Below, piece by piece: positions 6,001 through 9,000 of a DNA stretch of 38,231 bases. The stretch's first letter is position 1. Each line of letters opens with the position of its first letter. Source of the DNA: a bacterium (GTDB lineage: Bacteria; Babelota; Babeliae; Babelales; JAUWHS01); assembly GCA_043818275.1 (NCBI GenBank), contig JBDRFY010000079.1, positions 1 through 38,231 on the forward strand, written 5' to 3'. The position numbers are program-made.

Positions 6001-9000
6001 TGTTTTTTTATCCACCAATTCTTTGTTGTAATTGTTGAACTAATTTTGTTAATTCAGTAATTTTCTTTTCTAATTCTGCAATTTTACCATCTGATTGAGT
6101 TGTTGCTGTTGTTGGCGTGGTATAAGTTGGTGTTGGAGCTTTTGGCGCTGTGTAAGTTGTTGGCGCGGTATAAGTTTGAGTTGTAGCTTTTGGCGCTGTG
6201 TAAGTCTGCGTTGTAGTTTTTGGAGCCGTGGAAGTCGTAGTTTTTTGTGTTGTATAATCTTTTGTCTTGGTTGAGGTTGTGTCTGTTGCAGAAGTTGCGC
6301 CTGTTTGAGATGTTGCAGCTCCCGTAGATGTTTTTGGGTTATAATTAGTAATTGTTGTTACATGACTTGGCAAGGTCAGCGCGCTTCGTTGCGCTGAAGT
6401 TAATGAAATTGGGTTTCCAGCCAAAAAATTATTCGCTTGTTGTTGTCCAAGAATATTTACAAGCGCTGCCTCCATAACGTTTTGTTTAGGATAATAATTA
6501 TCCCCCCTGCTGTTGAGGTACCAGATTTGAGTTTTAGCGCCCAAATTCATAGTAAAAATTAAGAAAAAAAGCAGTAAAAAATATTTTTTCATTTTTCTCC
6601 CTTTGTTTATTAAAATTATCTTCCCGAAACATCTTTACTATAATATTAAATAATTTCTTTTTGATGCAATAATTTGTTAAAGTTTGTTTTTGATTTAAAT
6701 AAAGGATTTTTTAAATGATTTCTTTTTTATTAGGTTTAGGGCTAGGCATTTTTTATAGTCATGCGTTTTTATTTCAGCAAAAGAAAAATTTTAATTTGTC
6801 AGTTCAAAAAAAGACAATAATCCGTAATTCTGTTTTTAGCATGTTTACAAGATTTTTGATTTTTCTTTTATTTCTTATCTTTTTTTCTTTAATATTAAGC
6901 ATTAATATTTTTTTAGTTATTTTTGGTTTTTTGATTTCTTTTTGGTTGTATATTTTTATTTCTCTTAGGAAAAAAATATGAATATCTCGATTTTTGAATA
7001 TTGGGCAGTAAGACCATTAGCTAAATTTGGTTTAACCGGTAAATTTTGGGATATTCATTTAGATACCTTAATTTATACATGGGCAGCGATGTTGCTTTTG
7101 TTTGGCGTATCTTTAGTTGGTGTTTATTTTATAAAAAGAAAAATTAATATTGTTTCACTGCTTACAGAACAAGGAGTTGATTTTTTTATAAATCTTACCA
7201 AAGAATCTATGGGTTCAACTTTTACTTATAAACATTTTGCATTTATTGCAACCATGTTTTTTTATACGCTTTTTTGTTGCTTAATTGGATTATTTCCATA
7301 TCTGGAAGAATCTACAAAAGATCTGAATACAACTTTGGCTTTGGCAATTATAAGTTTTTTGTATGTTCATTATCAAAAAATAAAATATAAGGGGTTGAAA
7401 GGTTATTTAAAAGAATATATTGAACCCTTTTTTGTTTTACTTCCATTAAACGTAATTGGGGAAATTGCAAAAGTTATTTCAATGTCATTTCGTCTTTTCG
7501 GAAATATTTTGGGTGGTGGAATTATATTTTTTATTGTTGTTGAAGTTATTAGAGTTTATAAGATTCCTTTCATGATTTTTACATTAGTTGTTTTAGCTTC
7601 TTATTTTATTATTAATAAATTTGTAGATTTAAATGCGCATAGAATTTTAAAAATTCACCTATATACTTTTTTAGGATTAATTTTCTCTCTAGCCTGGTTA
7701 CAAATGTTTTTTGGGGTTTTTGAAGGAGTTGTGCAGGCTTTTGTCATAACAATGCTGACAATAACTTATTTAGCTGTTGGTATTCATAACGAAGATGAAG
7801 TAGTAAATCAAAAAGGAACTCAAGATGTTGACGCCTGAACTATTACATTATTTTGCTGTTGGAATTCCTGTTGTTTGTGCCGGATTAGGTACAGGAGTTG
7901 GACAAGGAATTGCGGCTTTGGGAGCAATTGAATCTTTAGTACGTCAACAATTGGGAAGAGAACAAAGTTTCAGAGCGATGATTATTGGGCTTGCTTTGGT
8001 TGAAAGCGCTCTTGTAATTGCTTTAGTTGTTTCAATTTTAACTTTGTTTGGTCCGCAAGCAGTTATTACCTGGCCAATCGCGTTTGCGGAATTAGGTATG
8101 AGTATAGCAATTGGTTTTTCTTCTTTATTCGTAGGTTTATCTTCAAGTTATGCTGTTAGATCCGCGTGCATTTCGATAACAAGACAACCATTTGCAAGTC
8201 AAAAAGTTTTAACTTTAATGTTGCTTATTCAATCTTTAATTGAAGCGGCGTTAGTTTTTTCTTTTATAGTTGCCTTGTTTATTAGAAATGGAATAAATCC
8301 TGAACTTGATATTTATGGTGGTTTAAAATTGTTATCCGCAGGTCTTGCGATCGGTATAGGTTGTATTGGTCCATTACTTGGGCAGGCTATTTTTGCAAAT
8401 AAAGCTTGTCTGGCTGTTGGATTTAATTCGGATGCATATAAAAGAGTATTGCCTTATTCGCTTTTGAGTGAAGCGGCGATTGAAACGCCTTTAATTTTTT
8501 CTTTATTAGTATCGTTATTAATTCTTTATTTTCCTTTAAATCCTTCAAATTATTTTTTATCGATTGTTAGTTTTTCTATTGCTGCCGTTACAATTGGTTT
8601 GGGGTCTTTTGGCGCTGTTGCTTCAGGAAGAGTTTCAGCTAAGGGATGTCAGGAAGTTGCTTTGAATTCAGAAATTTATGCTTCATTATTGCGTTCAACT
8701 TTGTTGGCTCAGGCATTTATTGAATCAACTGTTATTTATGCATTAATAGTTTCTTTGTTTTTGTTAATACGCTAAAAAATTTTTTAATGGAGAAATGTGA
8801 ATAATAAACAGATTCAGGTTTTGTATATTTTGACCAAATTAGAACTGGGTGGGGCACAAAAAGTTTGCCTGTCCTTATTAAAAGGGGTTAAAGATTCTAA
8901 TAATTACGCAGGCCTTATTTCTGGTAGCCAAGGTTCTTTAATTGATCAGGTCAAAGCTCAGGAATCAATTTTTTTACTTGATAGTTTTAAAAGAGAATTT

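Follow-up and report, generated by a model that had tools for sequence, protein, structure and literature searches.

How does an F-type ATPase use two kinds of subunit c when one of them is a chain of four fused hairpins? The question is raised by a genome of the Babelota that has one gene for subunit a and two for subunit c, an ordinary single-hairpin gene (single c) and, directly beside the a gene, one that encodes four hairpins in tandem (here termed c4). The latter lies in the window considered here, which is the whole stretch of DNA analyzed, 38,231 nucleotides of contig JBDRFY010000079.1. We describe the gene, a model of its fold, its residue pattern and the order and spacing of the ATPase genes, and weigh what these suggest about the ring in which c4 would work.

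The c4 Gene and Its Neighbors

Three genes on the forward strand make up the locus. The first (6715..6981, +) encodes a hydrophobic 88-aa protein with a weak match to PF03899 (E 0.017, under the curated cut-off) that is probably AtpI, the c-ring assembly factor. In 79 of the 88 loci an ORF of 60–160 aa directly precedes atpB, a few of these picks being off-frame ORFs, and PF03899 is the commonest family in the upstream proteins (9 of 44 aligned members, best E 3.1e-4). The second gene is atpB (6978..7838, +), which encodes the 286-aa subunit a (PF00119, E 3.5e-35) with Arg172 and an insert of ∼31 aa past the Arg helix. The essential Arg of subunit a is kept in 88/88 sequences, and the match at 6978-7838 is the only one to PF00119 in the genome, which is 94% complete, making this the sole a gene. 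The third gene is c4 itself (7825..8775, +), the first 14 nt of which lie within the 3′ end of atpB. Close spacing of this kind is widespread, the atpB-to-c4 gap being 10 nt or less in 74/88 Babelota loci, with 45 overlapping, where start codons were picked by a script.

The c4 protein has 316 aa and four PF00137 matches, all above the family cut-off and in one stop-free frame. Its carboxylates, Glu60, Glu140, Glu220, and Glu300, are spaced with an exact period of 80 residues; the last three had previously been given as 139, 219, and 298. It has both features by which an F-type subunit c is recognized, the PF00137 hairpin and a carboxylate in the middle of helix 2. AlphaFold2, run with 92 sequences, predicts eight long helices (pLDDT 96.4, pTM 0.92). 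Compared pairwise, the four hairpins share 13–20 identities over 65 positions (20–31% identical), and the same frame is present in 149 of the genome matches listed; an assembly artifact or a collapsed tandem repeat was rejected on these grounds. The first-pass annotation, which had described a 316-aa protein of four c hairpins, each with a Glu, in eight long membrane helices and adjoining the sole a gene, was accurate on all of these points.

Distribution of c4 and Single c

The c4 protein used as a query gave a match in 151/151 genomes. The other 150 are all labeled as belonging to the same order, and the survey is one of that order rather than of the wider phylum. Of the best 150 matches listed, 149 extend over the four hairpins in a stop-free frame, and the short match in genome G132 and the weak one in G064 are c4 genes cut off by contig ends. 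A genuine loss of c4 in G064 was rejected, since the gene runs into the end of its contig. With single c as the query, 147 of the 150 matches listed were short frames away from c4, those of G011, G012, and G036 being left out, and G132 was found to have a single c as well. Two earlier statements are thus upheld, that full-length c4 is present in nearly all genomes and that c4 and the single c gene are retained together across the sampled lineage. The named homologs of c4 are from Dependentiae/Babeliales.

Carboxylates and the Two Clades

For alignment we took 90 c4 proteins out of the 151, namely the 30 nearest and 60 from lower in the ranking, together with 70 single c sequences. Single c keeps its Glu in 70/70. 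In c4, position 60 is E or D in 89/90 and position 220 is E in 83/90, while position 300 is D in 47, E in 41 and Q or G in one each, and position 140 is Q in 60, E in 25, M in three, and G or L in one each. All four carboxylates are present in 22 of the 90 proteins, three in 61 and two in seven, one of which is the truncated protein of G132. Another sample, of 126 Babelota-like cluster representatives, which may overlap the first 90, came from a search in which 128 of 150 matches were 305–330 aa in length and two were closer to Desulfobacterota; it has all four carboxylates in 26/126 and Gln140 in 93. It had been claimed that Glu is conserved in all four hairpins and that four active hairpins are a phylum-wide trait. 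Neither generalization survives the wider sample, and the homologs considered at that time came mostly from the clade that has Glu140.

The families were first sorted by the Glu140 trait and the resulting two clades were then checked by trees. Glu140 is found in 25/26 proteins of eight families, which include the one described here, and in 0/64 of the remainder. The same two clades were recovered in a quick tree of c4 (SH-aLRT 81 and 90) and in a tree of subunit a from which the insert had been removed (87 and 96). Members of the Glu140 clade also have Gln187 (26/26) and ∼31 extra residues in subunit a (25/25), and G082 is alone among the 63 others in having an insert at this place. Glu140, Gln187, and the insert sit on one branch and count as a single line of evidence. 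Both the sister clade and Desulfobacterota have Gln at the hairpin-2 position, and Glu140 may perhaps be a regained site that arose on the same branch as the 31-aa insert in subunit a.

Unequal Hairpins and Ion-Site Ligands

The Na+ site of c-rings is assembled from two neighboring hairpins, one with Gln/Glu32 and Glu65 and the other with Ser66 (PMC3692424). The rule given for Na+ c-rings is a helix-1 Gln/Glu together with E[STQ][STQ]xxY, and where subunits have two hairpins it is the preceding one that contributes [STQ][STQ]xxY (bioRxiv 10.64898/2026.10.01.756066). Judged by these ligands, the four hairpins of c4 are not equivalent. Hairpin 1 (7852..8040, +) has Gln27, Glu60 (codon 8002-8004) and an RQ loop, with Q/E27 in 74 and Gln41 in 89 of the 90 proteins, and would contribute Gln/Glu to a site that it forms together with the preceding ring subunit. 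Hairpin 2 (8092..8283, +) has Glu140 (codon 8242-8244) and an RQP loop (R120 in 86/90, Q121 in 83, P122 in 89) and is without the helix-1 Gln. Hairpin 3 (8332..8523, +) combines Gln187 (32/90) and Glu220 (codon 8482-8484) with a non-canonical loop, GxNxxAY, and a Pro at +2 (80/90). In hairpin 4 (8581..8763, +), Glu300 (codon 8722-8724) is followed by S-T-x-x-Y, with S/T301 in 80/90 and Tyr305 in 87/90, and the hairpin would contribute these Ser/Thr/Tyr ligands to a site formed together with the next ring subunit. Counted over hairpins 1–4 in the 90 proteins, Tyr at +5 occurs in 0, 0, 0, and 87, Pro at +2 in 0, 84, 80, and 0, and Gln/Glu at −33 in 74, 0, 32, and 0. A complete Na+ site is found at an inner c4 interface in 0/90 proteins. 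These counts suggest that the standard chemistry is kept only at the two outer faces, where c4 would contact its neighbors in the ring, and in this genome both outer junctions of c4 conform to the Na+ rule. The single c of this genome also has the full Na+ motif (Q32, ESSAIY), as do 30/70 single c sequences in all; at such a proportion the coupling ion probably varies among members of the lineage.

The loops are likewise divided between the two proteins. Canonical RQP-type loops are present in c4 hairpins 1 and 2, whereas single c has GK[YKR]PE instead and a Gln at the loop position in just 1/70. The loop of subunit c binds gamma/epsilon, and the RQP loops of c4 may offer a fixed docking place for the gamma/epsilon foot. 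Mean identity is 0.52 in single c compared to 0.32–0.45 per c4 hairpin and 0.41 in subunit a, and the best-kept residues of c4 are in loops and prolines, namely the RQP of hairpin 2, Gly182-Pro183, Tyr205, and Pro222.

Conservation of this kind is what one would expect if c4 were mainly a structural or assembly element that nucleates the ring together with AtpI and subunit a, or sets its curvature or docking, with the inner carboxylates remaining protonated and carrying no ions. The linkage of c4 to an AtpI-like gene and to a points the same way, as does the tolerance of Asp or Glu at position 300 and of Gln, Met, or Leu at position 140. However, carboxylates are kept at positions 60, 220, and 300 in 89, 83, and 88 of the 90 proteins, which seems more than would be required of a scaffold, and we consider a mainly structural role improbable. 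It would in any case overlap with the insertion of c4 into a mixed ring, as proposed below, if c4 remains in the ring that it helps to build.

The Rest of the Enzyme and Its Direction

The ATPase genes of this genome are split over four places, atpI-a-c4 in the window, c-b′-b-delta-alpha on contig C64, gamma on C62 and beta-epsilon on C37. Two b-like genes come next after the 84-aa single c (C64:33002-33256), and then delta and alpha, which agrees with the first-pass annotation of an ordinary one-hairpin c gene in a second operon with b, delta, and alpha, where the two b genes gave no b-family Pfam match and are assigned from their position and shape. Delta is a clear member of its family (PF00213, E 2.3e-23) and beta has the Walker A motif GGAGVGKT. 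Epsilon has 84 aa and is without the C-terminal part, to which a braking role is attributed.

Two other identities were considered for c4 and rejected. It is not a V-type K subunit, as models of F0F1 subunit C rank first in NCBIfam and score above V-type K, the F-type partner genes a, delta, alpha, beta, gamma, and epsilon are all found, and PF01496, which would indicate a V-type a/I gene, has no match in the 94% complete genome. Nor is it part of an N-ATPase, the hallmarks of which are the absence of delta, the presence of atpR and a long b (PMC4154653). Delta is present here, TIGR03306 and TIGR03322 are far under cut-off, and there is no match to AtpR among 44 proteins upstream of atpB.

The distance of atpI-a-c4 from every other ATPase gene might suggest that c4 acts outside of the rotary enzyme, for example with subunit a as a separate ion channel. 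We regard this as highly improbable, since the genome has alpha, beta, gamma, delta, and epsilon in what is simply an operon split in four, and since the a gene beside c4 is the only one, it is needed by the enzyme.

The genome has six matches to the ATP/ADP-translocase family and one to a membrane pyrophosphatase, and none to Rnf or Nqr, the two systems to which the respiratory-chain search was limited. For TM6 it is reported that there is no electron transport chain and ATP hydrolysis has been proposed to keep up the gradient (PMC4776705). Judged from gene content, ATP-driven pumping is probably the main activity of the enzyme and would be fed by imported ATP.

Fused c Subunits in Other Enzymes

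The best PDB match of c4 is c1 of Acetobacterium woodii (4BEM chain J, sequence profile E 1.1e-25), which is also the sole Foldseek match at E up to 0.001 (E 1.5e-5). The 4BEM ring consists of one c1 chain and nine single-c chains (PDB entry; PMC9171764). Like c4, c1 is an F-type fused c from a second c gene of one enzyme, and it has Gln/Glu and Phe at +5 in its first hairpin (ETSGIF) and T-T-x-x-Y in its last (QTTGIY). The two differ in size, c1 having two hairpins (four helices) and c4 four hairpins and eight helices, in the divergence of their hairpins, which are 58% identical in c1 of Clostridium aceticum compared to 20–31% in c4, and in gene order, as c4 and single c are in separate operons here. 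The hosts are also very different, an acetogen in the one case and an ATP-importing parasite in the other. The second hairpin of c1 is without a carboxylate (PMC7911925). In contrast, c4 of the lineage mostly keeps three or four carboxylates, and the protein described here has all four, although an inner hairpin without a carboxylate is found in 68/90 aligned proteins, one of them truncated.

A weak match with three hairpins (P0073) led to 2030 proteins. The 120 of these that were listed have about four hairpins in 91 cases, five in 26 and three in three, and those named by organism are from Desulfobacterota or 'Deltaproteobacteria'; F-type c subunits with 4–5 hairpins are common in Desulfobacterota. 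Across 80 loci of that phylum a whole multi-hairpin c is present in 78 and a short c in 76, in the order a-c4-c, with gaps of 10 nt or less between a and c4 in 68/71 and between c4 and c in 0/72 (median 65 nt). These proteins have the length and the register of Babelota c4 (hhalign, 314 columns, probability 100) and resemble it in adjoining a, in the helix-1 Pro, RQP, and QTPxIF of hairpin 2, and in the Phe at +5 of hairpin 1 and the Tyr at +5 of hairpin 4. They differ in that single c is next in the operon, the hairpins are less diverged and carboxylates are fewer, with one in 35, two in 37, three in two and four in none of 74 four-hairpin proteins. The Babelota hairpin-2 profile scores 58 bits against the Desulfobacterota hairpin 2, higher than any other Babelota hairpin (29–36). 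Trees of the hairpins put those of Desulfobacterota all on one side (support 91–92, not starred), and a tree that joins the second hairpins of the two groups was not rejected (p-AU 0.56). Hence the trees are compatible with both a shared and a separate origin of the two c4 families.

A further type of fusion is found in Gracilibacteria, where a 524-aa protein (P0342, locus L253) has seven c hairpins, all with Glu, and a relative of P0342 is encoded by the first gene of an operon that also contains a, b, alpha, and gamma, as recognized from their translations. The related 968-aa protein P0249 has 13 hairpins, each with a carboxylate, and the profile search also gave a 434-aa protein with five c hairpins. 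Given these proteins, c4 is not the first F-type c subunit in nature with four active hairpins, as had been proposed. The hairpins of these c7 and c13 proteins are uniform, with Tyr at +5 in 6/7 and 13/13, respectively, and no other c hairpin was found in the three loci examined. Fusions are also known in A/V-type enzymes, with three hairpins in M. jannaschii, 13 in M. kandleri and two in E. hirae NtpK and eukaryotic c (PMC2359735; bioRxiv 10.64898/2026.10.01.756066). These subunits are like c4 in that hairpins are fused in tandem and ion sites are kept or lost, but c4 is unlike the uniform rotor of the M. kandleri type, which is marked by near-identical hairpins with a full site in each and by no separate single c, in that its hairpins have so few identities and a single c is present.

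A Proposed Place for c4 in the Ring

We propose, with a probability of about 0.65, that c4 is a low-copy insert in a heteromeric F-type c-ring that is otherwise made of single c. One c4, or perhaps two, would occupy four neighboring hairpin positions of a single-c ring, comparable to c1 of A. woodii. As the outer faces of c4 are standard, sites with the flanking single c would be completed on both sides, while the three inner interfaces would be remodeled, the Na+ ligand set being absent from all of them and, in two-thirds of relatives, the hairpin-2 site also being without its carboxylate. Such remodeled interfaces would mean that the insert lowers or alters the number of ions moved per turn. 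The tight spacing of a and c4 suggests that synthesis of c4 is roughly matched to that of a, giving one per enzyme, and single c would then be made in bulk.

Single c and c4 were also compared directly. Neither codon bias (c higher in 28/62 pairs, p 0.74) nor predicted ribosome-binding strength (30 vs. 31 of 63, p 0.98) differs between them, which neither supports nor contradicts such a difference in synthesis. Overall co-variation of ligands, c Gln32 with c4 Gln27, gave p 0.20 over 63 pairs; the two are concordant in 23/25 within this clade only, and in one c-c4 ligand comparison the trend is reversed (p 0.019), all of these pairings including kin that are not independent. When a complex of c4 and four single c was predicted, the score was 0.29, with a mark of 0.32, and it is counted neither for nor against. 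The location of c4 and single c in different operons in this genome speaks against a hybrid ring, as does the lack of overall ligand co-variation.

A different arrangement is a ring made of c4 alone, from two, three or four copies (8, 12, or 16 hairpins), next to a second, interchangeable ring of single c, with the same a and F1 serving both. The first-pass annotation had favored a rotor built of c4 units and had named a mixed ring, the reading preferred here, as a second possibility. The asymmetry of c4 alone cannot separate the all-c4 ring from the hybrid ring, because an all-c4 ring keeps the same outer ligands at its hairpin 4-hairpin 1 junction, and this last-to-first junction is complete here (Gln27, Glu60, Ser301, Thr302, and Tyr305). 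It is c4 rather than single c that is co-transcribed with atpI-atpB, all-Glu multi-hairpin F-type c subunits do occur naturally, and an engineered single-chain c10 is active (PMC8809890). On the other hand, in the clade without Glu140 every fourth site of an all-c4 ring would lack a carboxylate in 64/64 cases, and a single E56Q abolishes ATP synthesis in the fused PS3 c10 (PMC8809890). In addition, the uniform hairpins of c7 and c13 look different from those of c4, and the spacing of a and c4 suggests about one c4 per a. A ring of c4 units is thus unlikely in our view, and the notion that ring size comes in multiples of four and thereby fixes the ion/ATP ratio is hard to reconcile with unequal hairpins and no complete inner Na+ site.

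A variant of the hybrid ring can be envisaged for the Glu140 clade, namely that full Na+ sites, in single c and at the ends of c4, are combined with three inner carboxylate sites that bind H+ only. If so, Na+ and H+ sites would be present in one ring and each turn would move both ions in a fixed ratio, although this is a doubtful extension of the proposal.

Significance

In the literature searched on the ATP synthases of Dependentiae and Gracilibacteria and on fused c, of which few subscription papers were covered, we found no description of naturally occurring F-type c subunits that exceed two hairpins, nor of the four- and five-hairpin c subunits of Desulfobacterota. No match to Babel-, Dependentiae or TM6 was found in the 2026 preprint that also treats fused c subunits (bioRxiv 10.64898/2026.10.01.756066). 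The feature described here is real and strongly conserved, and would be a variant of an already known type, the hybrid F-type rotor subunit. To our knowledge, hybrid F-type rotors have been structurally solved in one acetogen only. The parasite lineage that carries c4 is a reduced one that has shed most of its metabolism.

The presence of a four-hairpin insert in every sampled genome of these reduced parasites suggests that mixed rings are a more widespread and a selected design. With c4 encoded in addition to a single c, prediction of c-ring size from the single c gene is unsafe in these bacteria. The Glu140 and Gln140 clades also provide a natural pair for considering silent or altered sites, how these affect ion/ATP coupling, and what number of them a rotor tolerates.

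Other fused c subunits

Homologue searches also recovered further fused c subunits, several of them F-type-like. One is a Gracilibacteria protein of 524 aa (P0342; L253:6001-7575, also at loci L254 and L255), translated with TGA read as Gly, in which all seven hairpins carry the Glu. Its gene comes first in the order c7-a-b-small ORF-alpha-gamma, that of an F-type operon, and no c hairpin besides those of c7 was found within these three loci. Four further F-type-like fusions have five hairpins with Glu in 5/5 (P0270), four with E/E/E/Q (P0340), three with Glu in only one (P0073) and two with Glu in both (P0075).

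Another F-type-like protein, P0249 (cluster of 12), has 968 aa and 13 hairpins, each with an E[SV]xxIY motif, and its top-scoring models are those of F-type c. Trp makes up 9% of its residues and stands where Gly would be expected, which suggests a TGA=Gly gene translated with the wrong code. P0249 may form a single-chain F-type ring. The A/V-type K subunit P0307 of Promethearchaeota (1139 aa), whose cluster includes a Hodarchaeota protein, has 15 hairpins with Glu in every one, more than the 13 of M. kandleri.

Other genes of the window and the beta-epsilon locus

Close to the contig start, a 457-aa reverse transcriptase (484-1857, +; PF00078, E 6e-38) is followed by a RelB-like/ParE pair (1949-2471). 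Divergent from the atpI-a-c4 genes lies the gene of a 194-aa protein (6008-6592, -) with a likely signal peptide and imperfect Thr-rich repeats, whose only match is a weak coiled-coil one. The window also encodes a NurA-domain protein (26941-28119, +) and a FUN14-family membrane protein (31817-32104, +). Two more of its products could act on the host cell: one resembles dual-specificity phosphatases (35886-36482, -), the other ubiquitin C-terminal hydrolases (24897-25994, +; PF00443, E 2e-5). On another contig of this genome (G000:C37:9720-17033), three ATP/ADP-translocase-family genes immediately follow beta-epsilon; the first consists of two overlapping frames (11656-12306 and 12134-12985) and is apparently frameshifted.

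Subunit a and the helix-1 Gln

Subunit a (6978-7838, +) contains an insert of ~31 aa at about residues 190-232, after the Arg helix and before the final one, and this insert is present in 25/25 proteins of the Glu140 clade, to which this c4 belongs. A genome of the other clade (G082) has a separate insert of its own at the same place.

The Gln of helix 1 varies among this genome (single c at G000:C64:33002-33256) and its relatives. Within family f11 it is replaced in the single c and c4 hairpin 1 together in four genomes and retained by both in five, while in family f5 its loss is confined to the single c, c4 hairpin 1 being unaffected. Such replacements may reflect recurrent switches from Na+ to H+.
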